Origin: a virus
Virus genome (UHGV): UHGV-0057547
DNA length: 64,000 nt
Direction: 5' to 3' (one strand)
In this document: one piece after another, positions 6,133-63,203 of the stretch
Layout: every line of letters begins with the position of its first letter
How positions within the stretch are numbered: position 1 is the first letter of the stretch
The notes under the pieces: generated by a model
What the model saw: the letters and a program-made list of their open reading frames with translations, nothing else
The model's database searches: none
Told to the model about the DNA's origin: nothing
Made by a program: the position numbers and the translations under genes

Positions 6133-6918
6133 CTAATCAGCAAATTTAAAAGATACTTTCATATCAGCTTTAGTACAACTAGCTTGAGCATTATATTTTT
6201 TATTTAATAGATTATATTTTATTGTATATTTGTTACAACCTAAAACTTTACAAGCTATTAAATAATTGTCAAATACTTTATGATAACCATCATTATTAAA
6301 TACAATTACTTCTTTATCTTCTATTTTATCACTTTCATCTTCATAATCATATTCATTAATACTTAATTGTTCTTTATTGTTTATTAATTCTTTTCTTAAT
6401 TTCATTATTAATTGTTGCACTCTTTGTTTACTTATTTCCATTTTACAACCTATTTCCTCATAGTTATAACCATTCATAAGCATTATAACTATATCATATA
6501 ATCTTTTATCTTTTAAATTTTTTATATAATTTAATATTTCATTTCTATAAATACCTGTAAAATCATCTAATCTTCCAACAGTTCTATCTCTAACTTTTTC
6601 GGTATCTTCATCCATACCTTCATTTTCATGAACTTTTCTTTCTCCACCTTTTTGAACATATTTATATAAATCATTATTAACAAAACTTAACATTTTATTT
6701 CTAATTGATTTTACAGCCAAAGTACTAAATTTTCCTTTACTTTCATCATAAGTTTTAATGACATTATATAAAGTTATCATTCCAATTTGTTTTAAATCAG
6801 CATATACATCATATTCAGATACAGTTGTATAGAAAAATCTTTGTATTACCCAATCCACTAAACTTTCATTTTCTATTAACATTTTTTCTATTCTTATTTC
6901 ATTTTCAAATTTTTCCAT
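6133..6918 (-). CDS. sigma-70 family sigma factor
   Basis: Region 2 (DLKQIGMITLYNVIKTYDESKGKFSTLAVKSIRNKM) and region 4 (EISKQRVQQLIMKLRKEL) signatures. Confidence 0.65.
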   Translation of the reverse strand: MEKFENEIRIEKMLIENESLVDWVIQRFFYTTVSEYDVYADLKQIGMITLYNVIKTYDESKGKFSTLAVKSIRNKMLSFVNNDLYKYVQKGGERKVHENEGMDEDTEKVRDRTVGRLDDFTGIYRNEILNYIKNLKDKRLYDIVIMLMNGYNYEEIGCKMEISKQRVQQLIMKLRKELINNKEQLSINEYDYEDESDKIEDKEVIVFNNDGYHKVFDNYLIACKVLGCNKYTIKYNLLNKKYNAQASCTKADMKVSFKFAD

Positions 6919-7016: not shown

Positions 7017-7763
7017 TTATTCCCTCCATTCAAAATTTATTTTCTTATTTAAAGTTTTACTTTTAGCACTTTTCCTTAATCCTTGACATATTTTCCTAAT
7101 AGAGTTCTTATCAATGCCTAAATCTTCACTAGCCATTTGAAGATTATCATAATTTTTATAAAATTTTCCATCTATAAAAGCTACAACACTTCCTTTACTT
7201 TTCCTAATTTCATGTTTAATATTAAATTTTTCTTTTAAGTTTTCTTTTATAAAAAACATTTTTTTATTTATAATACGATAATTATTATTTAATATTTCAC
7301 TTATTTCTTTTCCGTTGTATCCTCTTAGCATATAGTAAAATATTATATAATAATCTCCACCTAAATTCTTTACATATTGTAAATACATTTCAATGTATAA
7401 AATTGTTTCGTCATCATAATCACCCAACATATCTTCAAGAGTTAACTTTTCATCTTCTTTAGTTTGTATATCTTCATTAAGTGATAAAATATTTTTATTA
7501 TTTATTGTATGTTTTTTATTAATATAGGTTATAATAGAATTGTAAATGCATTTACTACAATAACAAATAAAGGATTTCTCATTGTTTATATTGTCAATAG
7601 GTCTATAAGTCTTATATGCTTTTACAATAGCTATTCTACCTTCTTGTAATAAATCATCATAATCATTGCTATAAATGAAATTTGAAAAATGTCTTTTGAT
7701 ATTTGATTTAATCAGATATTCATATTTGATTACAACTTCATTTATATCAATTGCGTTCTCCAT
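7017..7763 (-). CDS. sigma-factor-like regulator
   Basis: Region-2-like DLLQEGRIAIVKAYKTY and a C-terminal HTH-like segment. Confidence 0.5.
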   Translation of the reverse strand: MENAIDINEVVIKYEYLIKSNIKRHFSNFIYSNDYDDLLQEGRIAIVKAYKTYRPIDNINNEKSFICYCSKCIYNSIITYINKKHTINNKNILSLNEDIQTKEDEKLTLEDMLGDYDDETILYIEMYLQYVKNLGGDYYIIFYYMLRGYNGKEISEILNNNYRIINKKMFFIKENLKEKFNIKHEIRKSKGSVVAFIDGKFYKNYDNLQMASEDLGIDKNSIRKICQGLRKSAKSKTLNKKINFEWRE

Positions 7764-9832: not shown

Positions 9833-10999
9833 TTAATATTGTGCTAAGTTTATAGAGGCATTTAAGTCTCTATCCATTGTGTGTCCACATTCAGGACAAG
9901 TAAAAGTTCTATCTTTCAATTTTAATCTTTCTTTTCCTATTCTTATATATCCACATTTACTACAAGTTTGTGAACTAGGATACCATCTGTCAGCTACTAC
10001 TAATTCAATTCCATAGTCATCACATTTATAAGTTAATTGATTTTTGATTTCATTAAATCCTTGTTGCCCTATTGATTTACTTAGATGTTTATTTTTCATC
10101 ATCCCTTTTACGTTTAAATTTTCAATAACTACTCTTTGTGGTTTCTTTTCTACTATTTGATGTGTCATTGTATGTCTATAATTATTTCTTATACCTGCAA
10201 TTCTATGTTGTAATTTAAGTATTTGTTTTTCTAATTTTATTATATTATTAGTCTTATGATATTTCTTTCCTTGTCTATTCATTTCATATTTTCTACTCAC
10301 TTGTCGTTGCATACGTTTTAATTTCTTTTCTAATTTTCTAACATGAGCAGTTTTATTAATGTTTTTATATACTGTGCCATCACTACATATTGCTAAATCT
10401 TTTATTCCTAAGTCTATTCCTAATGATGTTGGATTTAATTCAGGTTTTTCTTTTATTTCTCTTAAGCCTACACTAATGCTCCAATATATCCCATTGTATG
10501 TGACTCTAGGATTTACATATTTAATTTTAGGATACATTTCGCTTTCTTCATAAGGTATATAACCTTTTCTAGCTAATTTGATTGTTCCTATCTTAGATAT
10601 TTTTACTGTATCTTCAGTGATTTTTATACGTTGATAATGTGGTGCAAAAGCTGGAGTTGTTTTATTTCTACTTTTAAATTTAGGATAACCAACATCAGGT
10701 CTTTTGAAAAAATTTTTAAAAGCATTACAACTATCTGTATATGCAATTACTAGTGCCATTGAATCACAATCTTTAAGCCATTCATTACCTTCTTGATTTT
10801 TGTAAGCAGTGAAATATTTGCTTAATCCTTTTGATGGTATAAACTTTTCTTTTTTAGGAATACTTTCATCTTCATATCTACTTTTTTGAAATGCTAAACA
10901 CCAATTATATACATGTCTTGCACATCCTGCTTGAAAGAACATTTGTTTTTCTTGTTGTTTTGTTGGATATAACCTAACTTTGAAAGTTCTAATCTCCAT
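9833..10999 (-). CDS. tnpB: TnpB (IS200/IS605-family RNA-guided RuvC-like nuclease), no adjacent TnpA
   Basis: RuvC-I IGIDLGIKDLAICSDG, RuvC-II VVIENLNVKGMMKN, zinc finger CSKCG..CPECGHTMDRDLNASINL; start ATG 10999 (MEIRTFKV) after GGGGGAATTGAAA. Confidence 0.85.
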   Translation of the reverse strand: MEIRTFKVRLYPTKQQEKQMFFQAGCARHVYNWCLAFQKSRYEDESIPKKEKFIPSKGLSKYFTAYKNQEGNEWLKDCDSMALVIAYTDSCNAFKNFFKRPDVGYPKFKSRNKTTPAFAPHYQRIKITEDTVKISKIGTIKLARKGYIPYEESEMYPKIKYVNPRVTYNGIYWSISVGLREIKEKPELNPTSLGIDLGIKDLAICSDGTVYKNINKTAHVRKLEKKLKRMQRQVSRKYEMNRQGKKYHKTNNIIKLEKQILKLQHRIAGIRNNYRHTMTHQIVEKKPQRVVIENLNVKGMMKNKHLSKSIGQQGFNEIKNQLTYKCDDYGIELVVADRWYPSSQTCSKCGYIRIGKERLKLKDRTFTCPECGHTMDRDLNASINLAQY

Positions 11000-11032
11000 T
11001 TTCAATTCCCCCATTTATCTTTATTTACTTAT

Positions 11033-33637: not shown

Positions 33638-34684
33638 ATGTCAAAAATAGATATAAAAGCTATGATAAAAGATTTAAAAAAGAATGAACTTACAGAGTTA
33701 ATTTCAGTAGCACAAGAAGTATTAAGTACTTTATTTAATTCTTCTGAAATTAGAGATAATGTTAAAGAAAGTAGATTTTCTAAAGGATACGAGTGCCCAA
33801 AATGTCAATGTAAAGATGTAAATAAAAATGGGAAATCTAATGGAAGACAAAGATATATATGTAAACGTTGTCGTACAAGTTTTGATGAGTTTACTATGTC
33901 CCCATTCTCTAATACAAAATTAGGGTTAGATAAATGGCTAAAATACTGCGAATTAATGATATTAGGACTTTCTATAAGAAAATGTGCTGAAGAAGTAGGA
34001 GTAGGTGTTAAAACGTCTTTTTACATGCGTCATAGGATACTTGATGTAATCAATTTATCATTAAAAAATGATAAAGTTGAAGGTATAGTTGAAGTAGATG
34101 AATGCTTTATTAAGGAGTCTTTTAAAGGGAATCATTCTAAAAGTACTACATTTGTAATGCCTAGAAATCCTAGAAAAAGAGGTAAAGGTAAAAATGATAA
34201 GAAGAAAAGAGGAATATCAAAAGAGCAGATTTGTATAGAGACAGCAATTGATAGAAAAGGAAATATCCTTATGGGTGCTGTTTGTAATGGTAGAATTACA
34301 ACAAATCAAATAGTTAACTTCTTTGACAATAAAATATGTGAAGATGCTACTTTTTGTGTAGATTCACATAAATCATATATGGGAATAAAGGATAAGTTGA
34401 ACATAGAGTTAAAGCAAGTTCCTAGAGGAAAATCAATGATAGATAGTGTTTATCATTTACAGCATATAAATGCTCTTCACAGTAGCTTTAAGAGATGGTT
34501 AATGACTTTTAATGGTGTATCCACAAAATATATCAATAATTATTTGGCTTGGTTTAAATTTCTACAACTAAGTAAGAAGAATAAAAAGAATGACCGAATT
34601 AAAGATATGCTAGTGAATGTAGCTACTAAGGATACATATGTAACTAGAGCCACTATTAGAAATAGATTCATTGAATTAACATAA
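33638..34684 (+). CDS. IS1595-family transposase
   Basis: N-terminal zinc ribbon CPKCQC..CKRC, VEVDECFI first DDE Asp region, C-terminal NNYLAWFKF. Confidence 0.6.
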   Translation: MSKIDIKAMIKDLKKNELTELISVAQEVLSTLFNSSEIRDNVKESRFSKGYECPKCQCKDVNKNGKSNGRQRYICKRCRTSFDEFTMSPFSNTKLGLDKWLKYCELMILGLSIRKCAEEVGVGVKTSFYMRHRILDVINLSLKNDKVEGIVEVDECFIKESFKGNHSKSTTFVMPRNPRKRGKGKNDKKKRGISKEQICIETAIDRKGNILMGAVCNGRITTNQIVNFFDNKICEDATFCVDSHKSYMGIKDKLNIELKQVPRGKSMIDSVYHLQHINALHSSFKRWLMTFNGVSTKYINNYLAWFKFLQLSKKNKKNDRIKDMLVNVATKDTYVTRATIRNRFIELT

Positions 34685-39743: not shown

Positions 39744-40874
39744 ATGATAAAATCATTCACTATTAAATTATATCCAAATAAACAACAAGAATTATTATTT
39801 TATAAACATATTAATTGCCAAAGATATATTTATAATTGGGCATTAAATTTAAATAATGAATTGTATAAAAAAGATAAAAAGAAATATTCTTCAACAGAAT
39901 TAGGTAAAATACTAACGCAATATAAAAAGCAAGAAATTTGGTTGAATGAAGTTTCTAATGCAACATTAAAAGAATCAATTAGAAATTTAGACAAAGCATA
40001 TACTAATTTTTATAAGAAAAAAGCAAATTTACCTAGATTTAAAAGTAAAAAGAAATCTAAATTAAGTTTCTATAGTAGATATGAGAAAATTAAATTTTAT
40101 GAAAATAATAGAGTTAATTTAGAAAAAATAGGTAAAGTTAAATATAAATCTAGTTACAATATTGATTTTAGTAAAGAAACTTCATTCAAGAATCCACATG
40201 TTAGTTATAATGGTAGATGTTGGATTTTAACTTTTGCATTAGATATTGAAGATAAAATTGAGTTTTTGACAAATGAAGTAATAGGAATAGATTTAGGAAT
40301 TAAATATTTAGCAATTTGTAGTGATGGTGTTGTTTACAAAAATATCAATAAAGAAATGAAAGTTAAAAAATTAGAAAAAAGATTAAAGAGATTACAAAAA
40401 CAAGTAAGTAGAAAATATGAAATGAATAAGAAAGGAGGTCGTTACTTTAAGACTAATAATATTAAAAAGTTAGAAAAAGACATTAAACGTATTCATCGAA
40501 GACTTAAAAATATAAGATTGAACTATTTACATCAAACAACTGCTGATATTGTGAAAACCAAACCATACAGAGTTGTAATGGAAGATTTGAGTATAACTAA
40601 TATGATGAAGAACAAATCAATAGCTAAGCAAGTATCTAAATTAGGCTTGTATGAGTTTATAAGACAAATGAAATATAAATGCGAGTGGAATGGTATTGAA
40701 TTTATACAAGTAAATAGATATTATCCTTCAAGTAAAAAATGTAGCAATTGTGGAAATATTAAAAAAGATTTGAAGTTATCAGATAGAGTTTATAAATGTG
40801 ATAAATGTGGATTAGATATTGATAGAGACTTTAATGCTAGTTTAAATCTTATGAATTATGGATTATCACATTAA
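39744..40874 (+). CDS. tnpB: TnpB (IS200/IS605-family RNA-guided nuclease), no adjacent TnpA
   Basis: IGIDLGIKYLAICSDG, VVMEDLSITNMMKN, CSNCG..CDKCGLDIDRDFNASLNL. About 55% identical to the first TnpB over the C-terminal half. Consensus promoter TTTACTTTTAATAAAATTATGAGTATAAT upstream. Confidence 0.85.
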   Translation: MIKSFTIKLYPNKQQELLFYKHINCQRYIYNWALNLNNELYKKDKKKYSSTELGKILTQYKKQEIWLNEVSNATLKESIRNLDKAYTNFYKKKANLPRFKSKKKSKLSFYSRYEKIKFYENNRVNLEKIGKVKYKSSYNIDFSKETSFKNPHVSYNGRCWILTFALDIEDKIEFLTNEVIGIDLGIKYLAICSDGVVYKNINKEMKVKKLEKRLKRLQKQVSRKYEMNKKGGRYFKTNNIKKLEKDIKRIHRRLKNIRLNYLHQTTADIVKTKPYRVVMEDLSITNMMKNKSIAKQVSKLGLYEFIRQMKYKCEWNGIEFIQVNRYYPSSKKCSNCGNIKKDLKLSDRVYKCDKCGLDIDRDFNASLNLMNYGLSH

Positions 40875-41012: not shown

Positions 41013-42155
41013 ATGAACGAATTTGAAAAATTCATGATAATAAATGAAAATAAAAGTTTAAAGAAAGAAATTGAAAATTTAGAAAAAATAATAAAAGGTT
41101 ATGAAAACAATAAATGTGATGAAAGTAATGAAGAAGTTGAAGGAATAGAATGTGCATATGACTATGATACTTCTAAAGAATTTGAAAATCAACTTAAAGA
41201 AATAAGAAGAAAACAAAAAGTGTTAATTAAAAATAAAGAAGCTATAATACATGACATGGAATGGACAGTTCAAGGAAGTGAAGCTAAAGGTAATAAGCTT
41301 ATGAAAGATATATCTAACTTAGCACTTATGAGTTTCAATGATTATTGCGATACATTAATAATTAAATTAAAATATAGTGGAATTGACAAAGTAAAAGACA
41401 ATATTACAAATAAATATAATAAAATAAATAAATTACTTAAATCTTTCTGTACAAGAATATCTGTTGATTTACTTAAATTAAAATATATAGAAGCTGATTT
41501 ACGATGTGGCTGGTTAAGAAAAAAAGAAGAAGAAAAAGAAGAAATTAGAAGAAAAGAAGCTGAAATAAGAGAACAATTAAAATTAGAAGAAGAAATAAAC
41601 AAAGCTAAAGAAAAAATACAATATGAACAAGCACAGTATAATTCTGAGATAGTAAGATTACAAGAACAATTAATTAATGAACAAGGTAATAATAAAGTTA
41701 TAAAGAAACAATTAGCTAAATTAGAAGACAAAATAGCTAAATTAGAAGAAAAGAAAAAAGATGTATTAAATAGACAAATAAATAAAAAGGCTGGTTGGGT
41801 ATATGTAATAAGTAATGATTCATTTGAAGGTAAAGAAGTATACAAAGTGGGAACAACAAGAAGATTAGAACCTTTAACTAGAGTTGCAGAATTATCTAGT
41901 GCTTCTGTTCCATTTAAATTTAAAGTACATTCAATAATATTTAGCGAAGATTGTTATGATTTAGAGTCTACTTTACATAAGGCTTTAGATGACAAACGTT
42001 GGAATTTAGCAAACAAACATAAAGAGTTTTTTGTTTGTAGTCTTGATGAAATAAAAGAAGAAGTATTAAAATATAATCCTACTGCAACATTCATAGATAA
42101 TCCAACTGATGATGAATATGAAATAACTCAACAATTAAGTAAGAAGGTGATTTAA
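41013..42155 (+). CDS. DUF4041-type coiled-coil protein with C-terminal T5orf172 (GIY-YIG-like) domain
   Basis: C-terminus GWVYVISN..YKVGTTRRLEPLTRVAELSSASVPFKFKVHSIIFSED..LHKAL; long K/E-rich coiled-coil middle. Confidence 0.55.
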   Translation: MNEFEKFMIINENKSLKKEIENLEKIIKGYENNKCDESNEEVEGIECAYDYDTSKEFENQLKEIRRKQKVLIKNKEAIIHDMEWTVQGSEAKGNKLMKDISNLALMSFNDYCDTLIIKLKYSGIDKVKDNITNKYNKINKLLKSFCTRISVDLLKLKYIEADLRCGWLRKKEEEKEEIRRKEAEIREQLKLEEEINKAKEKIQYEQAQYNSEIVRLQEQLINEQGNNKVIKKQLAKLEDKIAKLEEKKKDVLNRQINKKAGWVYVISNDSFEGKEVYKVGTTRRLEPLTRVAELSSASVPFKFKVHSIIFSEDCYDLESTLHKALDDKRWNLANKHKEFFVCSLDEIKEEVLKYNPTATFIDNPTDDEYEITQQLSKKVI

Positions 42156-44200: not shown

Positions 44201-46543
44201 TTATCCATAGACAATTACTACACCTAACCATTCTGTGGTATAAGTGAAAATAAACTCATATGTTTTATTAGCTGAAATTGTTGGAATATTTCCATTTTGC
44301 CACTTACAAGTTGGTAATGTTAAAGTTAAATCTGCTGTTGTACTAAAGAATAAATGAATTTTTGTAAAAGAAGTAACTGCTGGTAATGTAATTTCAGTAC
44401 CATTTACGATAGTAGCAGTTTGATATTTGTCTGTTGTTAATGATAAAGTAGTACCTGATATATTAGTAGTTACTAGAGTATTATTAATTTTATCGTCTAA
44501 GTATTTCTTAGTAACTACATCCATATCATCAGTAGGATTTTTACCTACAGTTAATTTACCTGCATACCAAGCATTACCTTGCCAATCTAAAGTGTGTGCA
44601 TTTGACCTTTTAGCATCACCAGCACCATTACCTACTATATGAGCATATTTATTAGCAGTATCTTCTATATTATATTTACCTTGTACATGTTGATATTTAG
44701 AAGAAGCTTTAGTATTATTACCTTCTGCATGTGAAGATTCACCTGAAGCTGTTGTCGTAGAGCCTTCTGCATGTGAACCATAATTACCTGAAGCTGTTGT
44801 ATTATTACCTTCTGCATGTGAACCATAACTACCTGAAGCTGTTGTATTATTACCTTCTGCATGCGGACCATAATCACCTGAAGCCTTTGAAGACCATCCT
44901 TCTGCATGTGAAGAATAACCTGAAGCCTTTGAAGACCATCCTTCTGCATGTGAACAATCACCTGAAGCTTCTACATCTTCTCCCGTAGTAAAACTATTTT
45001 CTCCTACTGTAGTCCCTTCTTTTCTTCCTAAACTTACACTTCCTGTAAATACTGGATTATTTGTAGTAGCATATCCATTCAAACTTTGATGTTCTGTTAA
45101 ATATTGACTATGTGTATGTGAAGTTACATCACCAGTTAATTTAGCTTCTATTTCTGCTTTAGTTATATCACTATTTTTCTGTGCTGTACTTGGTGCATGA
45201 GCTGCTTGACTATGTGTATAAGCAGCATCATAATTAGATTTTAAAGCATTAGTTAAGTCATTAGTAGATAAACCTTTACCTGTTTCTTTTTTAACGAAAT
45301 TTGAGGTATCAACAGTTGTTCCTCCTGAACCTTTATTTGCATCGAAGTATTTCTTAGTAACTACATCCATATCATCAGTAGGTTCTTTACCTACAGTTAA
45401 TTTACCTGCATACCAAGCATTACCTTGCCAATCTAAGGTATGGGCATTGGAATTTTTACCATCCTCACCATTACCAACTATATGTGCATAAGTACCATTT
45501 AAGTCTTCTATATTATACTTACCTTGCACGTGTTGATTTTGAGAAGAAGCAATAGTACTAGCGCCTTCTGCGTGAGAATTTTCTCCCGAAGCTGTTGTAC
45601 AATTACCTTCGGCATGAGAACAATATGCTGAAGCAGTCGTACTATCACCTTCGGCATGCGAAGATTCACCTGAAGCTGTTGTATATTTACCTTCTGAGTG
45701 AGAATTTTCTCCTGAAGCAGTCGTACTATCGCCTTCTGCATGTGAATAATAATTTGAAGCAGTTGTAGAACTGCCTTCAGCATGAGAAGCAACACCACTA
45801 GCTATTGTATTACTACCTTCAGCATGTGAACCATAATCACCTGAGGCAGTTGTACCTTCACCTTCTGTATGTGAACCATTACCTGAAGCAGTTGTATCAC
45901 TACCTTCTGCATGTGAATAATCGCCTGAAGCTATTGTCATAGAGCCTTCAGCATGTGAATAATCGCCTGAAGCTGTTGTCATAGAGCCTTCAGCATGTGA
46001 ATTCATACCTGAGGCAGTTGTACCTTCACCTTCTGCATGTGAACAATCACCTGAAGCTTCTACATGCATACCTATAGCACTACTTCCTGCTCCTATATCT
46101 CCTACTCTTCCTAAACTTATACTATTTTGTAATACTAAATCAGTTTCTAAATATTTACTATCTAAATATTTAACTTCTTCTTCGTAAATAACTAAATCAG
46201 TAAAAGTATTAGTAGTAATATCATTTTTACCTAGTTCAATAAGTAACATTATATTTGTTAAATCCTCAAATGCTTGTATACTATAATTGCCAATACTACA
46301 TACAATACAATTACCAATTTCTTCACTTACTAATAAAGTACATAATTTTTTACTACCTAAGAATTCTATATAATATCTTCTATCTTTATTAATAGAAACA
46401 TTATTTACAGTAATATTATCATTTAATTTTATATCACTAGCAGGTACAGTAACTAATACTTTACTAGAAATAGTTTTTATTACATTATTATCATTGTTAT
46501 TTCCATTGGTTTTATCTTCTCTAATAAACCCCATTAAATTCAT
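44201..46543 (-). CDS. tail-fibre / adhesin-like protein with Hep_Hag-type heptad repeats and an internal module duplication
   Basis: Tens of SHAEG..TTASG 7-residue repeats; two copies of HTLDWQGNAWYAGKLTVGK-PTDDMDVVTKKY; ~130-bp near-identical DNA direct repeats at 44520-44650 and 45350-45480. Confidence 0.55.
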   Translation of the reverse strand: MNLMGFIREDKTNGNNNDNNVIKTISSKVLVTVPASDIKLNDNITVNNVSINKDRRYYIEFLGSKKLCTLLVSEEIGNCIVCSIGNYSIQAFEDLTNIMLLIELGKNDITTNTFTDLVIYEEEVKYLDSKYLETDLVLQNSISLGRVGDIGAGSSAIGMHVEASGDCSHAEGEGTTASGMNSHAEGSMTTASGDYSHAEGSMTIASGDYSHAEGSDTTASGNGSHTEGEGTTASGDYGSHAEGSNTIASGVASHAEGSSTTASNYYSHAEGDSTTASGENSHSEGKYTTASGESSHAEGDSTTASAYCSHAEGNCTTASGENSHAEGASTIASSQNQHVQGKYNIEDLNGTYAHIVGNGEDGKNSNAHTLDWQGNAWYAGKLTVGKEPTDDMDVVTKKYFDANKGSGGTTVDTSNFVKKETGKGLSTNDLTNALKSNYDAAYTHSQAAHAPSTAQKNSDITKAEIEAKLTGDVTSHTHSQYLTEHQSLNGYATTNNPVFTGSVSLGRKEGTTVGENSFTTGEDVEASGDCSHAEGWSSKASGYSSHAEGWSSKASGDYGPHAEGNNTTASGSYGSHAEGNNTTASGNYGSHAEGSTTTASGESSHAEGNNTKASSKYQHVQGKYNIEDTANKYAHIVGNGAGDAKRSNAHTLDWQGNAWYAGKLTVGKNPTDDMDVVTKKYLDDKINNTLVTTNISGTTLSLTTDKYQTATIVNGTEITLPAVTSFTKIHLFFSTTADLTLTLPTCKWQNGNIPTISANKTYEFIFTYTTEWLGVVIVYG
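44520..44650. repeat. intragenic direct repeat copy 1
   Basis: CTTAGTAACTACATCCATATCATCAGTAGG..TTTACCTACAGTTAATTTACCTGCATACCAAGCATTACCTTGCCAATCTAA matches 45350-45480. Confidence 0.6.
45350..45480. repeat. intragenic direct repeat copy 2
   Basis: See copy 1. Confidence 0.6.
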
Positions 46544-53699: not shown

Positions 53700-54725
53700 A
53701 TGGAAGAAAAGGAAAAAAGAGCAATAGATATAGAAGATATGTTTGAAATCTGTGTTATAAAAGATGAACATGGAGAAGATGGTTATAGTCTAGGAACATA
53801 TAAGGATAGACAAGCTTTAAGTGGTTTTTATATAAAAGCAAAAAAAGATAGTTTATTGGAAAAAGTAGAAGGTTTCTTTTGTGGTAAATTTAAGTTAGAA
53901 AATGACCCTGAAAATTATAGACAAGAAGCAAGGATAGAGCTTTGGTTGTCAATAGATAAATACTATAATAAGCTTGGTTATGATGATACTGTTAAAGGAG
54001 ATGGGTTAATATTTACCAATTGCAAATATAAGGCAATGGATATGGCTAAATTAGCTAAAGGAAACGTATCTGTTTGTGATAGAACAACTGGTAAATATTA
54101 TATAAATAAAATAGAATCATTTGAGCAGAAATTTATTGAAGAAAATGATAAAATGAGAAATCAAAAAGATGAAAAATACTTAAGTGAAAAATATAATATT
54201 GAAGATTTTAATAAAGTATTTACAGGAGAATATGAGACAACAAATGAATTTATTCGATGGTTTGAAAAAAATAAAAGTTACATATTAACAAAAAAACAAA
54301 TAGATTATTTAAATGGAGATGCAATAATAAAAAACGCAAGTGGTGTTTGGATAATAAATAAAAATATAAGAAAAAGAGTAGAAAGTTGTTATGCAAACGA
54401 TAAATTAAAAAAAGAAAGAATTAAGAAATTAAATAAAAAATTAAAAAATGTAAATTATTTATTGGATTTCAGTGATGAAGAAGATTTGATTAATAGACTT
54501 AAGAAAATGTCTAAGAGAAAAGATGATAGAATCTTAATGAAATTATTTGAATATCTAACTAAAGACGAATGTATTCTATTAACTAGAATATTAAATGATA
54601 AAGATTATGAAGTTGAAAATAAAAAATTTTATTATAACATAATAGAAATATTGATAAATGAAGAAGCATACATTAATAATTTAATTGAAAATATGAAGAA
54701 GGAAGGTGAAATCCCTTGGGATTAA
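53700..54725 (+). CDS. hypothetical protein (weak sigma-region-2-like segment)
   Basis: ORF track, 341 aa; ENYRQEARIELWLSIDKY is faintly sigma-like. Confidence 0.45.
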   Translation: MEEKEKRAIDIEDMFEICVIKDEHGEDGYSLGTYKDRQALSGFYIKAKKDSLLEKVEGFFCGKFKLENDPENYRQEARIELWLSIDKYYNKLGYDDTVKGDGLIFTNCKYKAMDMAKLAKGNVSVCDRTTGKYYINKIESFEQKFIEENDKMRNQKDEKYLSEKYNIEDFNKVFTGEYETTNEFIRWFEKNKSYILTKKQIDYLNGDAIIKNASGVWIINKNIRKRVESCYANDKLKKERIKKLNKKLKNVNYLLDFSDEEDLINRLKKMSKRKDDRILMKLFEYLTKDECILLTRILNDKDYEVENKKFYYNIIEILINEEAYINNLIENMKKEGEIPWD

Positions 54726-55321
54726 AAAGAAGAAATGTTAGAAGTGTTAATAAAAAAGATAAAGATATTGGTGGAATAAGTTTAAGTGATTATCAAAAAG
54801 AAGCAATAAAAATAGCAATAGCTAATAAAAAAGAAAATAATAAAATAGAGATATGTACTTCAGAGGAAAATAAAGAAGATATAAAGGAAGTTGCTACTGA
54901 AAAGGTAGAATTAGCTAATGACATGGTTAAAACTCCAACAGAGCCAATTAATGAGCTTACAGATACAACTGAAGAAGATACTAATGTTGCAGAAGTAGCT
55001 GAAGAAAAGGTAATTGAAGTTCAAGAAGAAAAAGTAGTAGTCGAAGATGTTGATGCCGAAGAAAAAGAAGAAAAAGAAGTAGAAGATTTAAATACAGAAA
55101 AAGATGATGTAGCAAAAATAATAGAAGAAGAAAACAATAAATCTGAAGAAGATAAAAGGGTTATATGTTTAGATACTGGAATAGTATATGAAAACAGTAA
55201 AGATGCAGAAAGTAAAACTGTTGCCAAAGCCAATGCTATCACTAGGTGTTGTAGAGGAAATTGTAAAAAAGCTGGTAAATTGAGATGGCAATACTATAGT
55301 GATTATTTACTTGAAAAATAA
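54716..55321 (+). CDS. acidic protein with C-terminal Cys cluster
   Basis: ORF track; E/D/V-rich middle; start uncertain (TTG, overlaps previous gene). Confidence 0.4.
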   Translation: MGLKRRNVRSVNKKDKDIGGISLSDYQKEAIKIAIANKKENNKIEICTSEENKEDIKEVATEKVELANDMVKTPTEPINELTDTTEEDTNVAEVAEEKVIEVQEEKVVVEDVDAEEKEEKEVEDLNTEKDDVAKIIEEENNKSEEDKRVICLDTGIVYENSKDAESKTVAKANAITRCCRGNCKKAGKLRWQYYSDYLLEK

Positions 55322-55332
55322 AATAAAAACAT

Positions 55333-55361
55333 TTGACTTTTAATGAAAGTCTTAGTATTAT
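55333..55361 (+). promoter_or_regulatory. consensus promoter
   Basis: TTGACTTTTAATGAAAGTCTTAGTATTAT. Confidence 0.5.
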
Positions 55362-55482
55362 ATAAGTAAAGCTACGATAAATCAATAAAAAATATATATA
55401 GTTGTCTTACATAAAAAATGTAATATTTCGATTAATGCACCATAAATGGTATATTAATTAATATGTAAGGAGAGATGCGACA

Positions 55483-56268
55483 ATGACTGAAAAAGAATTT
55501 GTAAGGGCATTGGTAGCAGAATGTAAAAGGAATGGTTATAGAATATCGCAACCCAATGTTAAAAAAGTAATAAAATCTTTAAGAAATTTGACATTTAAAA
55601 CTTGCTTAGAAGGAGAAGAAGTTAGATTGTTAGGATTTTGCACATTTACACCTGAAGAAACAAGAGATGTAATCCTACCAAATGGAGAACATAATAAAAA
55701 GAGAACAGTCATAAGAGTAAAATTAACAGAAGTGTTTAAAAGAAGATTTAGAGATACAGCAGTATTAGTAAGAGATGGAGCTATGGATTTATCAGATATT
55801 CATTATAATATGTTTTTTGAAGATGATGAAGAATATGATGATTTGTTTGATGACTTAGACGAAGAAATAGAGGAAATAGAAGAACAGATAGCAGAATTAG
55901 AAGATGAGGACGACGAAGATGAATCAGAGGATGAGGATGATACTGACACAGGTGATGAAGAAGATACAGATAGTGAAGATGTTGAAGATGATGTAAGTGA
56001 AGAAGATAGTGACACAGATGACGATGAAATTGGTACAGAAGATGAAGAAATCATTGAAGAAGAAGACGATACAGAAGAAATGGAAGAAGACGAAGATGAT
56101 GAAAATACAGATGACGATACTGATTCTGATGATGAATTAGAAGATGAAGACGACGAAGAAGATACTAATAGTGATGAAGAAGATGAAAATTCTGAAACAG
56201 AAGAATTATTAGAAAAATTAAATAGTTTATATGAAGAATTTAAAAATAATTTAAGAGGTGAAAAATAG
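55483..56268 (+). CDS. HU/IHF-like DNA-binding domain fused to a ~160-aa polyacidic tail
   Basis: N-terminus aligns with the HU fold (LLGFCTFTPEETRDVILPNGEH..KLTEVFKRRF); the C-terminus is almost pure D/E. Confidence 0.55.
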   Translation: MTEKEFVRALVAECKRNGYRISQPNVKKVIKSLRNLTFKTCLEGEEVRLLGFCTFTPEETRDVILPNGEHNKKRTVIRVKLTEVFKRRFRDTAVLVRDGAMDLSDIHYNMFFEDDEEYDDLFDDLDEEIEEIEEQIAELEDEDDEDESEDEDDTDTGDEEDTDSEDVEDDVSEEDSDTDDDEIGTEDEEIIEEEDDTEEMEEDEDDENTDDDTDSDDELEDEDDEEDTNSDEEDENSETEELLEKLNSLYEEFKNNLRGEK

Positions 56269-56660
56269 TGGAATTAAAAGCTATAAACAATATTAGTGAT
56301 GTAATCATAAGTACAGAAAATTGTAATAAATATTTATTAAAAACAATTAATTCTATAAAATTAATTTATTACAATAATGAAATCTATATTAAACTATCTA
56401 TTGAAGTATTTTCAGAAAAAGAAATAGAATTATATAAGAAGTTCATACAAAAAACAATAGAAAAAGAAAAAAGTAAAGTATTTGTAGATTTTCATATAAA
56501 TGAAGTAAATACAAATGGTAAAAAACATAATAAATATAATCATTTAAGTTGTTCTTATGGTATACCAAATAATATATGTTTATTAGAATTAAATTACACT
56601 GAAATCACATCAATAGATTATTATTTTAAAATTAATGATATTAATGAATTAAATTTATAA
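56268..56660 (+). CDS. hypothetical protein
   Basis: ORF track, 130 aa; GTG start overlapping the previous stop. Confidence 0.45.
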   Translation: MELKAINNISDVIISTENCNKYLLKTINSIKLIYYNNEIYIKLSIEVFSEKEIELYKKFIQKTIEKEKSKVFVDFHINEVNTNGKKHNKYNHLSCSYGIPNNICLLELNYTEITSIDYYFKINDINELNL

Positions 56661-56681: not shown

Positions 56682-56891
56682 ATGGCAAAAATTTCAAAAA
56701 GTATGAGTTTTAAAAATTTTAGTTTTCGCATTAATAAAGATGAAGTGTTAAATAAAGATGTTATATATTTAGTTGAAGAAACTAAAGATGACCAATTATT
56801 CCATTCATTAGATGAAATATTAGAATATTTTGCTGGTGAAGATGGATTATCAATGACTATAAAAATAGAAAAGAACCTTGGCGAAGAATAG
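56682..56891 (+). CDS. hypothetical protein
   Basis: ORF track, 69 aa, RBS AAAAGGAGAG. Confidence 0.4.
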   Translation: MAKISKSMSFKNFSFRINKDEVLNKDVIYLVEETKDDQLFHSLDEILEYFAGEDGLSMTIKIEKNLGEE

Positions 56892-57734: not shown

Positions 57735-59840
57735 ATGAAAGAAATGAACACTATGTATTTAAGAAGAAGAAATAAAATGATAGTTAGCTTTAATGACAAA
57801 GATAGCGAAAAAGTTAGTGAACAAATAATAGCAACTTCATTAGTAAATTTAGAAAGTTATGGATATACATTTTCAGAAAAACTTATAGAAGAATTAAAAT
57901 TATTATCTGTTGAACAATATATAGATTTTTATAATATGACAGTATCAATAATTAAAGAATTAGTAGGAGCAGATAAAGTTACCGAACCTATGTATCCTAA
58001 TTTCCCACAACAAGTAATGGAAATGGATGAAGTTGAATTATATCTTAATGCAATAATTCATTATGCTACTGATGGTCAATTAGTTCCTGAATATGAAAAG
58101 AAAGAAAGATTCCCTTTAATAGGAAATTATGACTTAACTGTTATAGACTTAGGAAATGTTGAAGATTTCAATACAATATTTACTAATTTAGTATCTTCTA
58201 AAGTAAGTATATCTGCTTCAGATAAATCAGATATATCATGGTTTTTAAAAAAATTCAATAAAGAATATCTAAAGAAAATTATGCCTGAAGAAATTCCATT
58301 TAAAGAAATATTGAGTTATGTGACTTCTGAATTATGGTTTGGTGAATACAATGATGACATTAAAGAAATATTGATACCTTATTATAAAACAGCCACTGAT
58401 GTCTTAAGATTAGCAACAGTTTTAAGTGATGGAGATGAAAGTTTATCAAAAGATTATTATTATAATTCATTTAAAAGAAAAGACAGAAGAATACTATTAA
58501 CAATGTTAGAAAATGCAAATAACATAGAAGAGGATATGCTTAGATATAAAAATAGATGGATAAGATTAGGAGAGGTATTACACCCAGGTGAATATAAGAA
58601 ATTTAAAAAAGTTAATAGAGCATTTGATAAAATAAGAAATGATAAAAAAATAGATACATTTAATAGTAATATAGAAAAAGCATTTGAAGAAAAAGACTTA
58701 GATAAAATTCTTGAATTATTAACTAGTAGACCTGGTGAATTCGCTAGAAGATTAGATAGAACTCTTAGATTAGCAACTGATAAAAATGAAAGCAATAAAA
58801 TAGTATTAGCATTTAGTCAAATAGCTGAAAAAATTCCTACTCCTCTTTTACTACAAATTAGAAGTTATTTCATAAAAAGAAAAGAAAACAACAACTTAAG
58901 AGTTTTCTCAATAAAAGGTTCAGGAAAATTATATGGTAAAGAAAATGATTTAAAAGAACTAGATAAAATAACTTGTACTAGAATAGAAAACATTTGTAAT
59001 CTTAGATTAATGAATGAATATTCTAAAAGAGATTATTTAGGGAAAGTTTATATAGACGAAGAATTAAAAGATTATATAGCACCAACATCTCAAAGAAACT
59101 CTAGTAAAGCATTAAAATCAATGGCAAAAGGTAGTAAAATGAAAATAAAAGATGGAACAAATTTTTTAAGAAATTTCGTATATTGGAAACAAAAAAATGG
59201 TTGTAGAACAGATTTAGACTTGAATGCATTATGTTTTACTAATGAGTTAGAAGTTATTGATGAAATATGGTATGGTAATTTAAGAGGTCGTAAAACAAAT
59301 ATTTGTCATAGTGGAGATTTTATATCAGCTAAAGATGGTGCAAGTGAATTTATTGACATTGATATTGAAAAATGTAAAGAAAGTGGCGTTAGATATATCT
59401 TAGTTTCAATTAATAGTTTTTCAGAAGAATATTTCAGTGAATTAGAAGATTGTTTTATAGGTTACATGGAATTAGATAATAATACAACTGGCGAAGTATT
59501 TGAGCCAAAAGCAGTAGCCAATAAATCTGACTTAAGTTCTGATTGTGAACAAGTAATCGCTAACATAATAGATTTAGAGGAAATGTGTATTTATTGGGCT
59601 GATATGCCAGTATCAAAAAGCTATGGATATAATAATATAAAATTTAATAAAAAGAATTTGACATATACCCTAGAATCAATAATGAATATATGCAAACCTA
59701 ATTTATACGATGTAATATTCATGAATGCAATTGCTAGAGGAGAAGTAGTAGATAATAAAGAAGAAGCAGAAATAGTTTATTCAACAGATGGAGATATTAC
59801 ACCATTTGATGTAGATATAATTGTCGGAGAATATATATAA
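57735..59840 (+). CDS. large protein with C-terminal TerD-family domain and ~480-aa unrecognised N-terminal region
   Basis: C-terminus TDLDLNALCF..IWYGNL..CHSGDFISAKDGASEFIDIDIEKC..VRYILVSINSFSEE..TGEVFE..IIDLEEMCIYW follows the TerD pattern (DLDxSAL, FYNNL, HSGDNLTGEG..IDVDLSK, RIAFAVTIH). Confidence 0.6.
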   Translation: MKEMNTMYLRRRNKMIVSFNDKDSEKVSEQIIATSLVNLESYGYTFSEKLIEELKLLSVEQYIDFYNMTVSIIKELVGADKVTEPMYPNFPQQVMEMDEVELYLNAIIHYATDGQLVPEYEKKERFPLIGNYDLTVIDLGNVEDFNTIFTNLVSSKVSISASDKSDISWFLKKFNKEYLKKIMPEEIPFKEILSYVTSELWFGEYNDDIKEILIPYYKTATDVLRLATVLSDGDESLSKDYYYNSFKRKDRRILLTMLENANNIEEDMLRYKNRWIRLGEVLHPGEYKKFKKVNRAFDKIRNDKKIDTFNSNIEKAFEEKDLDKILELLTSRPGEFARRLDRTLRLATDKNESNKIVLAFSQIAEKIPTPLLLQIRSYFIKRKENNNLRVFSIKGSGKLYGKENDLKELDKITCTRIENICNLRLMNEYSKRDYLGKVYIDEELKDYIAPTSQRNSSKALKSMAKGSKMKIKDGTNFLRNFVYWKQKNGCRTDLDLNALCFTNELEVIDEIWYGNLRGRKTNICHSGDFISAKDGASEFIDIDIEKCKESGVRYILVSINSFSEEYFSELEDCFIGYMELDNNTTGEVFEPKAVANKSDLSSDCEQVIANIIDLEEMCIYWADMPVSKSYGYNNIKFNKKNLTYTLESIMNICKPNLYDVIFMNAIARGEVVDNKEEAEIVYSTDGDITPFDVDIIVGEYI

Positions 59841-59948: not shown

Positions 59949-61208
59949 TTGTATATGTTAGATGAAAAGTTCTTAAGAAAAGAAAATGAAACATTAGAAG
60001 AATATCAACTGAGATTATCTGTGATGAAATTAAAAGATGGAGAAGATATAGAATGGCAAGACATTAAAGAGTTATTAGATAGTGACGAACATAGAGATAC
60101 TCTTAGAAGAAAAGGAAAAGGTCTTGTTATGGCTTATGATATATACGAAGAAAAAATAGCAAAATTAGAAGATGAATATTACTACAAACTTAAGAAAATG
60201 AGAGAAAAAGTTGATGAAGACATAGAAGATAAAAGATTAAGAGAAATCAATAACAAAGTGTTACAGCTTGAAAAAGAAAAAATTAAATTAAAAGACCAAA
60301 GAAATGATTTAAATGCAACAAAAAGAACAATAGCTAGAGTAGAACATTTAGTTGAATGCATGGAAGATAAAATAGAAGAATTAAGTAAAGCTAAACCATT
60401 ACTTGAAAAAGAAGTTATTAAACCAATTAATAATACAATTGGGATAGCAATGATATCAGATATTCACTTAGGAGTTGGAGTTGATAATGAATTATCACAA
60501 TATAATCCTGAGATATGTAAGAAAAAAATGAATCATTATATCAATGAAGTTATTAGATATGGAGAATTTAATAATATAAGTGAATTGTATGTATTAGGCT
60601 TAGGCGATTATGTTACTGGAATTATAAGAAATACAAATAGATTAGAATCAAGATTAAATATAGTTCAACAAGTTTTAGTAGTAAGTGAATTGTTATCTGA
60701 AGCCATTGGAAGACTATCAGAACATTTTATATGTAAAGTTGGTTTAGTTCAAGGTAATCATGATGAGATTAGATTGGGTGATAAGGATAATACATTGATA
60801 GAAGAATCATTTACATTTTTTATAGATGAATATATAAAACAAAGATTAAAAGAAAATAAAAATGTTGAATTCTTACCAACTGAAGATAAAGAAAAAGAAT
60901 ACATAACTTTTAAAATAAATGGATTAAATTTCTTTGCATCTCATGGACAACGAGATAAAGATAGACAACTTGATAGAACTATTGAAATGTTTGATGAAAG
61001 AATAGATGTTGTATTAAGAGGACATTTTCATCAACCGTCAAAACATTATAAGAATAAAACATTGGTAATAACCAATGGTTGCTATTCCGGTGAACCTTAT
61101 TCAAAAAGAGCTAGATTGTATACACCTAGTATTCAAAAATTCTTAATATTTGATGAATATGGATTAGTATGTGATTACGACATCAATATAGATAGATATG
61201 AAAATTAA
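59949..61208 (+). CDS. coiled-coil protein with C-terminal calcineurin-like metallophosphoesterase domain
   Basis: MPP motifs DIHLG, GDYVTG, GNHDE, GHFH in order; N-terminal ~150-aa K/E-rich coiled coil. Confidence 0.7.
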   Translation: MYMLDEKFLRKENETLEEYQLRLSVMKLKDGEDIEWQDIKELLDSDEHRDTLRRKGKGLVMAYDIYEEKIAKLEDEYYYKLKKMREKVDEDIEDKRLREINNKVLQLEKEKIKLKDQRNDLNATKRTIARVEHLVECMEDKIEELSKAKPLLEKEVIKPINNTIGIAMISDIHLGVGVDNELSQYNPEICKKKMNHYINEVIRYGEFNNISELYVLGLGDYVTGIIRNTNRLESRLNIVQQVLVVSELLSEAIGRLSEHFICKVGLVQGNHDEIRLGDKDNTLIEESFTFFIDEYIKQRLKENKNVEFLPTEDKEKEYITFKINGLNFFASHGQRDKDRQLDRTIEMFDERIDVVLRGHFHQPSKHYKNKTLVITNGCYSGEPYSKRARLYTPSIQKFLIFDEYGLVCDYDINIDRYEN

Positions 61209-62285: not shown

Positions 62286-63203
62286 ATGGCAAAAAAGAAA
62301 TCTCATGAGGAGTTTGTTAATGAATTAAATATAAAAAATCCTAATATAAAAGTATTGAATAAATATGTAAATGTGTCTACGAAAATAATGGTTAAATGTA
62401 TAATTTGTGGAAATGAATGGATGGCAATACCTGGTAGTTTATTAAATGGAACTGGGTGTCCAAAATGTGCAAATAAAAATAAATCAAATAAACAAAGAAA
62501 GACAAAAGAACAATTTATAGAAGAGATGAAAATTATTAATCCTAATGTTAAAATAATCGGTGATTATATTAATAATCATACGAAGATAAAATGTGAATGT
62601 TTAATATGTGGGAATATATATTTTATGATACCTAAAAATTTAAGGAAAGGGCAAAATTGTCCTGAATGTGCTATGAAACAAAGAGTATCTAAAAAATCTA
62701 AAATTCATGAACAATTTATAATTGAATTAAATGATATAAATAAAAATATTAAAGTATCAAATAAATATATAAATGCAAAAACAATCATGGAATGTTCTTG
62801 TGATATTTGTGGTCATAAATGGAAATCTAATGCTGATAATTTATTAAGAGGTCATGGGTGTCCAAAGTGTGCAATAGAAAATAGTAGAGGTGAAAATAAC
62901 CATAATTGGAATCCTAATCTTACACAAGAAGATAGAGAAAATAAAAGAAATTATATGGAATATAAAGAATGGAGAAAAAATTGTTATGAACGAGATGATT
63001 ATACTTGTCAAGTTACAGGGAAAAGAGGAGTAGAATTATGCGTACATCATTTATATTCTTATAATAAATATTATTGTTTAAGAACTGCATTAGATAATGG
63101 TATAACAGTATCTAAAGAAATACATGAATTGTTTCATAAAATATATGGACGAGGAGATAACACATTAGAACAATGGGAAGAATTTATTAAAAGTTTAGAA
63201 TAA
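62286..63203 (+). CDS. HNH homing endonuclease with three N-terminal zinc-ribbon repeats
   Basis: Three ~50-aa repeats each with CxxCG..W and GxGCPxCA; C-terminal CQVTG..VHHLYSY..HELFH HNH motif. Confidence 0.65.
   Translation: MAKKKSHEEFVNELNIKNPNIKVLNKYVNVSTKIMVKCIICGNEWMAIPGSLLNGTGCPKCANKNKSNKQRKTKEQFIEEMKIINPNVKIIGDYINNHTKIKCECLICGNIYFMIPKNLRKGQNCPECAMKQRVSKKSKIHEQFIIELNDINKNIKVSNKYINAKTIMECSCDICGHKWKSNADNLLRGHGCPKCAIENSRGENNHNWNPNLTQEDRENKRNYMEYKEWRKNCYERDDYTCQVTGKRGVELCVHHLYSYNKYYCLRTALDNGITVSKEIHELFHKIYGRGDNTLEQWEEFIKSLE

Follow-up and report, generated by a model that had tools for sequence, protein, structure and literature searches.

In the 64,000-nt stretch of the viral genome UHGV-0057547 analysed here (the window), the open reading frame (ORF) at 55483-56268 is a genuine gene for a divergent DNABII (HU/IHF-type) DNA-bending protein of 261 residues, expected to dimerise and bind DNA, and this protein carries an extreme polyacidic tail. 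By analogy with known acidic tails, we tentatively favour, at a little under an even chance, the reading that the tail is a tethered intramolecular DNA mimic or electrostatic shield that would contact the protein's own core, and that this is its ancestral and core function. The ORF has a strong Shine-Dalgarno sequence, AAGGAG (55467-55472), 10 nt ahead of its ATG, and is preceded by a second ORF at 54716-55321. The source of the window is an uncultured SPbeta-like phage of ~175-198 kb, probably of gut origin.

The HU/IHF-type core and its acidic tail

We compared the N-terminal region with sequence, profile and structure libraries. Residues 1-100 are basic (pI 9.95, net charge +9). The ORF alone matched Pfam PF00216 marginally (22.7 bits, cut-off 22.4; residues 1-61, model positions 1-56) and PDB sequences weakly (TF1 at E 0.085), and 42 of the 43 aligned subfamily members matched PF00216. 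A profile built from the subfamily returned HU (1b8z, E 1.6e-4) and TF1 as its best PDB matches. In the AlphaFold2 model, the predicted local distance difference test (pLDDT) was ~90 across residues 1-100, and the elements followed the canonical HU order, with helices at 3-16 and 23-42, strands at 47-59 and 75-81 (arm) and a helix at 83-97. The top 50 Foldseek matches in PDB were all HU, IHF, Hbb, TF1 or ASFV pA104R-type proteins or putative bacterial DNA-binding proteins (TMt ~0.54-0.83 for HU/IHF chains of ~90-100 residues), and the matches in BFVD were phage HU-like proteins. F52 and P66 are invariant in 43 subfamily members; P66 stands at the arm tip within an 'LPNG' motif. The core is 19-24% identical to bacterial HU. 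These results indicate that residues 1-100 adopt a well-supported predicted HU/IHF (DNABII) fold, as a preliminary description of this DNA had proposed; Pfam, the family profile, AlphaFold2 and Foldseek agree, and the N-terminal region does model as an HU fold when its structure is predicted.

The same description had noted a polyacidic tail fused to the HU domain, which the composition bears out. Residues 101-261 carry a net charge of -92 (96 D/E against 4 K/R), residues 113-237 are 70% D/E with no K/R, and the whole protein has a net charge of -83. Ranked by acidity, this ORF was first in the window, with 71 D/E in its best 100-residue stretch, followed by the upstream ORF with 35. The acidity and the proposed length of ~160 residues therefore stand, but the tail is not uniform: it has three distinct parts, two of which are conserved and contain predicted helices.

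The first part consists of a linker, an aromatic/acidic motif HYNMFFEDDEEYDDLF and a predicted amphipathic acidic helix at residues 119-142 (pLDDT 71-86) with heptad-spaced hydrophobic residues; the conserved stretch at residues 101-142 reads HYNMFFEDDEEYDDLF...EEIEEIEEQIAELE. Residues 98-142 are near-identical in all long-tail variants, the exceptions being an L/I change at residue 103 and a stop codon in relative L003, and the aromatic/acidic motif is also found in the short-tailed orthologues P0004, P0008 and P0002. The second part is a hypervariable, predicted disordered polyanionic tract, which is ~72% D/E without K/R over residues 141-236. In the AlphaFold2 model, its residues ~143-236 have a pLDDT of ~50-60 and no predicted secondary structure, with confident helices on both flanks. 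The DNA of the tract contains short tandem GAW-type repeats, and the antisense ORF at 55803-56054 (minus strand, 83 residues, poly-Ser) was rejected as a gene, being the mirror image of the GAW-codon tract. The third part is a C-terminal amphipathic helix, SETEELLEKLNSLYEEFKNNLRGEK, modelled at residues 235-259 with a pLDDT of ~86. Its final codons double as the ribosome-binding site of the next gene (junction sequence AGGTGAAAAATAGTGG), and the stop codon of the HU-like ORF overlaps the GTG start of that gene by 1 nt.

We then assessed how widely the protein is distributed. An exhaustive sequence search of 1.84 billion representative proteins returned 13 matches only, mostly of 85-109 residues, and a profile search widened the subfamily to 46 proteins. 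Close relatives were found only in metagenomes, on three IMG/VR contigs of 174-198 kb and on ENA/Logan contigs, one of them labelled pig gut. No relative was detected in 185,579 GTDB genomes, a tblastn search of INPHARED with the HU core found nothing, and at the DNA level INPHARED gave no relative but only GAW-repeat matches to polyacidic genes of unrelated large phages. Searches of NCBIfam and PADLOC with the proteins of the locus returned nothing. The long tail is limited to one clade, formed by the window, L003-L006 and P0007, whose proteins have 253-269 residues and share first 142 codons that are 96-100% identical. The syntenic orthologues L001/L002, L009 and P0008 (~57-82% identity, 128-133 residues) have an acidic tail of ~20 residues, and more distant members (85-109 residues) are tail-less.

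Polyacidic proteins were also seen elsewhere. Staphylococcus phage AH12 encodes a 208-residue hypothetical protein (L015:1258-1884) that has a long D/E(S) tract and is itself acidic along most of its length, and Alishewanella phage Slickus01 encodes a 163-residue hypothetical protein (L016:1370-1861) with a D/E run of ~50 residues, between annotated DNA polymerase I and DNA polymerase genes. Inspection of the two translations by eye, with no family-library scan, revealed no recognisable HU-like region in either protein.

Evolution and possible function of the tail

To describe how the parts of the protein evolve, we aligned the long-tail variants codon by codon. Codons 1-142 showed 96-99.8% nucleotide identity, with almost all changes synonymous (14 synonymous and 1 non-synonymous core codon differences between the window and L005), which points to strong purifying selection on the HU core within the clade. 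The D/E tract showed 72-96% nucleotide identity with 6-27 gap codons per pair, and the C-terminal helix 85-100%. Among near-identical phages the tract varied from 88 to 104 residues, with D and E swapping freely, and each indel was in frame. Summed over six variants, the tract contained 235 D, 196 E, 34 N, 1 K and 0 R, without a stop codon, and 14 alignment columns contained N compared with 1 containing K, although D-to-N and E-to-K take the same G-to-A change. Charge reversal in the tract thus appears to be selected against. The tract is essentially free of lysine and has no stop codon although N is common, which argues that it is translated and selected for polyanionic composition, not for sequence.

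These data also bear on a largely neutral runaway expansion, in which slippage in GAW-rich DNA would have inflated a short acidic tail that has no function beyond that of the short tail. The length polymorphism, the interchange of D and E, the short tandem repeats, the tail-less and short-tailed relatives, the nonsense alleles described below and the recurrence of polyacidic tracts in unrelated hypothetical proteins of other large phages are all in its favour. However, every indel keeps the frame, so that the conserved C-terminal helix is always read, and basic residues and stop codons are almost absent even though GAA-to-AAA and GAA-to-TAA are single-step changes in DNA of 24% G+C, while D-to-N is common. 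We regard this explanation as unlikely.

The evidence for a role of the tail in cis comes from the charge of the core. The core charge averages +2.9 in tail-less members (n = 37), compared with core and tail charges of +10 and -93 in the window protein, and of +12 and -17 and +16 and -14 in other tailed members. Core and tail charges cancel almost exactly in the short-tailed orthologues, and the window protein overshoots. This co-variation of core and tail charge argues for a cis, autoinhibitory role first. In such a mechanism, the disordered polyanion would fold back onto the unusually basic HU core and compete with DNA; non-specific DNA binding would be lowered, and only preferred sites (bent, structured or phage-specific) would be engaged. 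Alternatively, the protein might engage DNA once a basic partner captures the tail. The ancestral state may have been an aromatic/acidic tail of ~20-30 residues that almost exactly neutralised the core. In the long-tail clade, a GAW-codon tract between two conserved amphipathic helices would then have grown to ~90-105 residues, and it would keep shifting through in-frame slippage-type indels, with selection barring basic residues and stop codons. An origin of the coding region of the C-terminal helix from intergenic DNA of the short-tailed L001 was rejected, since 273 of 500 shuffles aligned locally with a score as high.

Several observations weigh against this autoinhibitory reading. The arm is less basic than that of canonical HU, its rising strand being acidic (E58, E59, D62) and its falling strand basic (K72, K73, R74, R78, K80), and its proline, P66, aligns 1-2 columns off the canonical RNP proline. 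The charge co-variation represents essentially one clade plus one minor case and is statistically non-independent. Autoinhibition would need far less charge than the -93 of the tail for the +10 of the core; at such an excess DNA binding might nearly vanish, which hints at an additional or different role. In addition, the tail is lost in two relatives through independent in-frame nonsense codons that lie shortly ahead of it or within it: TAA at codon 131 of L003 (L003:4900-4902; GAA in the window), with the tail intact downstream, and TGA at codon 107 of L010 (L010:587-589; TGT in L009), with the tail open downstream. These alleles argue that the tail is dispensable or at times disadvantageous, and they indicate that tail-less alleles probably arise and persist at least briefly. 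Stop-codon recoding was judged unlikely because one of the two codons is TAA. Contigs L011 and L012 also stop at the nonsense-codon spot, and these contig ends suggest population heterogeneity there.

The surplus of charge beyond that needed to neutralise the core can also be read as a sign of action in trans, which we consider possible though doubtful. The tail would then be a polyanionic decoy, a disordered DNA mimic that titrates basic DNA-binding proteins of the host (HU, nucleoid proteins, restriction or defence nucleases), and the HU domain would serve as a dimeric scaffold, a DNA tether or a poison subunit that heterodimerises with host HU. On each chain the tract presents ~70 negative charges (the variants range from net -65 to -78), roughly equal to 35 bp of DNA; it is lineage-specific, hypervariable and compositionally constrained, which is compatible with an arms race, and the conserved amphipathic helices flanking it could form an interaction module. 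Acidic DNA mimics directed at HU exist in phages and bacteria, as SPO1 Gp46 (PMC8892312) and Neisseria DMP12 (PMC3643605) occupy the DNA-binding surface of HU, the latter by binding HU. With an excess of roughly 90 charges in the long-tail clade, the tail may serve basic host proteins as a decoy or chaperone in the manner of Gp46, in addition to any role in cis. However, Ocr, Gp46 and DMP12 are folded with a fixed charge geometry, and the tract is predicted to be disordered and is unconserved in sequence. Syntenic phages have a short tail or none, and the nonsense alleles remove it. The gene adjoins an exonuclease and terminase block, not obvious early host-takeover genes; the low identity of the core to bacterial HU makes a heterodimer with host HU doubtful; and no PADLOC or anti-defence family signal was found.

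The preliminary description had likened the tail to the acidic DNA mimics used in anti-restriction and host takeover. An electrostatic role is plausible, but the disordered and hypervariable tail is unlike folded mimics, and an anti-restriction or host-takeover role is not evidenced, as syntenic relatives manage with a tail of ~20 residues or none. The fuller proposal, a new kind of phage counter-measure in which a disordered, fast-evolving decoy on a dimeric HU scaffold strips or sequesters host HU, nucleoid or defence proteins or poisons HU, and thereby achieves a Gp46/Ocr-like function by a disordered region fused to the phage's own replacement HU, seems to us unlikely. Should action in trans prove true, phages would have yielded their first disordered DNA mimic.

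The apparent selection on composition only, not on sequence, would also suit an entropic bristle or spacer on DNA-bound HU that separates coated DNA and prevents its bridging, aggregation or co-packaging by the neighbouring terminase machinery. The conserved helices anchor both ends of the tract and could close a loop, packaging genes adjoin the gene in the family, and the Plasmodium falciparum apicoplast protein PfHU condenses DNA abruptly when its acidic extension is absent (PMC2528193). Such a bristle overlaps in mechanism with autoinhibition, and -93 per chain would itself strongly oppose DNA binding; we consider it very unlikely. The tethered mimic or shield acting in cis remains the reading that we favour.

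The upstream ORF, the 5' untranslated region and the genomic setting

The preliminary description had paired the HU-like gene with the upstream ORF, taken as a strongly acidic protein with a Cys cluster, as two adjacent acidic proteins that form a DNA-mimic or nucleoid-targeting pair. The two ORFs adjoin in all close relatives, and both contain variable acidic regions. The cysteines are real and some acidity is present, but the latter is only moderate (net -16 overall; 38% D/E in residues 46-145). The C-terminus of the upstream ORF matches phrog_4538, and its last ~50 residues resemble the C-terminus of a GIY-YIG endonuclease (tblastn, E 3e-7) and those of many HNH endonucleases. A BLASTP search matched the C-terminus of a Synechococcus phage GIY-YIG endonuclease (E 8e-14, 46% identity), and a matched Lactococcus HNH protein has NUMOD1 and I-HmuI_NUMOD-like domains at the matched C-terminus. 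The ORF itself matched no Pfam family at E <= 0.1, the NUMOD link being transitive through homologues, and no GIY-YIG or HNH nuclease domain was detected in residues 1-145 by Pfam, NCBIfam or PHROG. A homologue search with a NUMOD-like segment of 64 residues gave no match, with too few words in common.

The cysteines in question (C178, C179 and C183, plus C151) lie within the NUMOD-like module; the CC pair and C151 are conserved, C183 is not, and His is absent. The 'Cys cluster' is thus best read as the CCxG motif of a NUMOD-type module, with no conserved metal-type cluster. The protein varies from 133 to 201 residues among relatives through the length of its linker, it is separated from the HU-like gene by a 161-nt spacer that contains a conserved structured 5' untranslated region (UTR), and it is missing beside the HU-like gene in the wider family. 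From these sequence comparisons, the upstream ORF is predicted to encode a nuclease-less DNA binder derived from homing endonucleases, perhaps a remnant that has decayed or been domesticated, rather than a mimic, and the proposed pair is extremely improbable. For annotation, adjoining acidic ORFs need not form a mimic pair, and a NUMOD-type CCxG motif may be taken wrongly for a metal cluster.

The 5' UTR of the HU-like gene was folded with RNAalifold using 7 sequences from 3 lineages. An outer helix of 9 bp (55405-55413 with 55462-55470) overlaps the Shine-Dalgarno sequence and sequesters part of it; 8 of its 9 pairs are invariant and one shows a single-side change from U-A to U-G. An inner hairpin (55432-55457) contains 5 pairs with compensatory double changes across the three lineages. 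The 5' arm of the structure has an alternative pairing with 55418-55423. The palindrome occurs once in the window, the single-sequence fold has a z of -1.96, and Rfam gave no match. The structure could be a translational switch or an autoregulatory site. A sigma-70-like promoter at 55333-55361 was rejected, as such matches are no commoner than in shuffled sequence and this one is not kept in L001.

The gene order around the locus was compared with that of SPbeta, which runs yonO, yonN (HU-like), yonK and yonJ (exonuclease), and further on yonG and yonF (terminase). The window contains a YonK-family protein and a YonJ-like exonuclease downstream of the HU-like gene (Table 1), the latter also matching the neighbour of the HU-like gene in L019 (BLASTP, E 1e-58). 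Contigs of 110-137 kb with tail-less members carry the HU-like gene, a gene of 67-68 residues, the YonJ-like exonuclease, YonG_N, terminase and an S8 peptidase. Across a broad group of SPbeta-like phages, the HU-like gene therefore takes the place of yonN; the sequences fall short of orthology, with ~19% identity between the core and YonN and an hhalign probability of 52% over 37 columns. The 130-residue gene translationally coupled to the HU-like gene is syntenic in L001, L003, L009 and L010 and absent in L017-L020, and it is confined to the clade whose HU-like proteins have acidic tails. Its product was rejected as a basic partner of the tail, having a net charge of -1. The NUMOD-type ORF and the 130-residue gene that flank the HU-like gene are clade-specific insertions.

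Table 1. Coordinates of the features of the locus within the window
Feature	Position	Strand	Evidence
Upstream ORF, 201 residues: basic N-terminus, variable acidic E/V/K-rich linker, NUMOD-like module at residues 146-193 (nt 55151-55294)	54716..55321	+	
Conserved structured 5' UTR	55405..55482	+	RNAalifold
DNABII (HU/IHF-type) core, residues 1-97, net +10	55483..55773	+	Pfam, AlphaFold2, Foldseek, profile
Linker, aromatic/acidic motif HYNMFFEDDEEYDDLF and predicted amphipathic acidic helix 119-142; residues 98-142	55774..55908	+	AlphaFold2, alignment
Hypervariable, predicted disordered polyanionic tract, residues 143-236	55909..56190	+	AlphaFold2, variant alignment
C-terminal amphipathic helix SETEELLEKLNSLYEEFKNNLRGEK, residues 237-261, plus stop codon	56191..56268	+	AlphaFold2, variant alignment
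130-residue protein, net charge -1, translationally coupled to the HU-like gene	56268..56660	+	ORF, synteny
YonK-family protein, synteny anchor	56682..56891	+	Pfam PF09642, E 8e-7; BLASTP to SPbeta YonK, E 3e-6
YonJ-like metallophosphoesterase exonuclease, synteny anchor	59949..61208	+	Pfam Metallophos; phrog_284; BLASTP to SPbeta YonJ, E 1e-23

The window as a whole is phage-like. Its G+C content is 22-28% almost throughout, and its genes include a GH25 endolysin plus glucosaminidase, the YonK-family protein, integrases, sigma-like factors, anti-repressors, a RecD-like helicase and the SbcD/YonJ-like exonuclease; no tRNA genes were found in the window. Two adjacent sigma-factor-like ORFs (6133-6918 and 7017-7763, both on the minus strand; phrog_351 and phrog_1740) suggest a transcription programme under the phage's own control. 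A 341-residue upstream protein was also considered as a sigma factor, which was unsupported, as it showed no similarity to the sigma-like ORF of the window or to the phi6255 sigma factor; its single-sequence AlphaFold2 model was unusable (pLDDT 36.6).

Several further genes were noted around the locus and elsewhere in the window. A plus-strand gene at 57735-59840 encodes a 701-residue protein with a TerD domain (phrog_33734), present in syntenic relatives and scattered large phages; it matched the MXAN_6230/SCO0854 RING-domain family NF041916 at E 1e-109 with 368 bits, below the cut-off of 600. A CapR/DUF4379/DUF723 HNH-type homing-endonuclease-like gene lies at 62286-63203 (plus strand), and a similar gene of 312 residues lies between YonK and an 89-residue gene in L001 (7070-8008) and L002, a place that is empty in the window. 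Homing elements around the locus thus show presence/absence polymorphism. The plus-strand gene at 41013-42155 combines DUF4041 with T5orf172/MUG113 and matches PADLOC PD-Lambda-1 over its full length (E 4e-97), which gives it the look of an anti-phage defence gene carried by the phage itself; in L017 and L019, the HU-like gene likewise has SNIPE/T5orf172 genes in its vicinity. Also encoded in the window are a TnpB/Cas12f-like OrfB_IS605 protein and two more transposase-like products, at 39744-40874 (plus), 9833-11014 (minus) and 33638-34684 (plus). The minus-strand ORF at 44201-46543 (780 residues) lies in a local GC-rich island (34% compared with ~24% elsewhere) and has a weak YadA-head repeat match below threshold (E 0.005, 17.6 bits, cut-off 25), together with five stretches matching phrog_25468; it may be a fibre or adhesin of different compositional history.

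Comparison with known systems

HU-like proteins are common among phages, and autoinhibitory tails of acidic residues have been described, but a literature search on phage HU or DNABII proteins with acidic tails found no precedent for a phage DNABII protein with a long polyacidic tail. Acidic disordered tails are well studied in eukaryotic architectural proteins such as HMGB1 and barely documented for bacterial or phage HU/IHF. The syntenic phages described here provide a natural allelic series, with no tail, a tail of ~20 residues, a tract of 90-105 residues and nonsense-truncated forms, which makes it testable how much polyanion an HU domain needs and what for.

The closest system by position is SPbeta YonN, a protein of 92 residues with 68.5% identity to the host's HBsu; YonN binds supercoiled DNA and untwists it (PMC3258159). 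The two have in common that they are DNABII proteins of phages and that their genes fill one slot, ahead of yonK and the exonuclease gene yonJ. YonN is tail-less, whereas the window protein has an acidic tail of 160 residues and comes from a small phage subfamily of its own, with an 'LPNG' arm tip. SPO1 TF1, likewise an HU-family protein of a phage and one of the top sequence matches in PDB, has 99 residues, and its C-terminal extension is short and not acidic. As TF1 illustrates, a DNABII protein of a phage can specialise in regulating phage DNA; TF1 prefers modified-base DNA, and there is no evidence of such DNA for the window phage.

T7 Ocr, SPO1 Gp46 and DMP12 share a highly negative surface with the tail. 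They are compact folds of defined charge geometry that lack a DNA-binding domain, whereas the tract is a hypervariable, predicted disordered region attached to an HU domain.

For phi29 p6, experiments have shown an acidic tail of 10-21 residues that varies in length between phages, shields a basic patch and lowers DNA affinity (PMC10899789). Like the window protein, p6 is a phage genome organiser with a disordered acidic tail, and it comes close to the short-tailed P0004, P0002 and P0008; its fold is unrelated to HU, and its tail has ~10 acidic residues compared with ~96 D/E in residues 101-261 of the window protein. In HMGB1, a basic architectural DNA-bending domain is followed by a disordered pure D/E tail of ~30 residues. 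The D/E repeats bind the domain in cis, autoinhibit DNA binding and speed target search (PMC10250230). HMGB1 differs in being eukaryotic, in its HMG-box fold and in showing no hypervariable expansion. No HU with an acidic extension other than PfHU turned up in the literature search. PfHU has a disordered, predominantly acidic C-terminal extension of 42 residues that modulates DNA condensation (PMC2528193). It shares with the window protein the combination of an HU domain and an acidic extension, but the extension is shorter and mildly acidic, and PfHU as a whole is basic (pI 8.8), compared with a net charge of -83 for the window protein.

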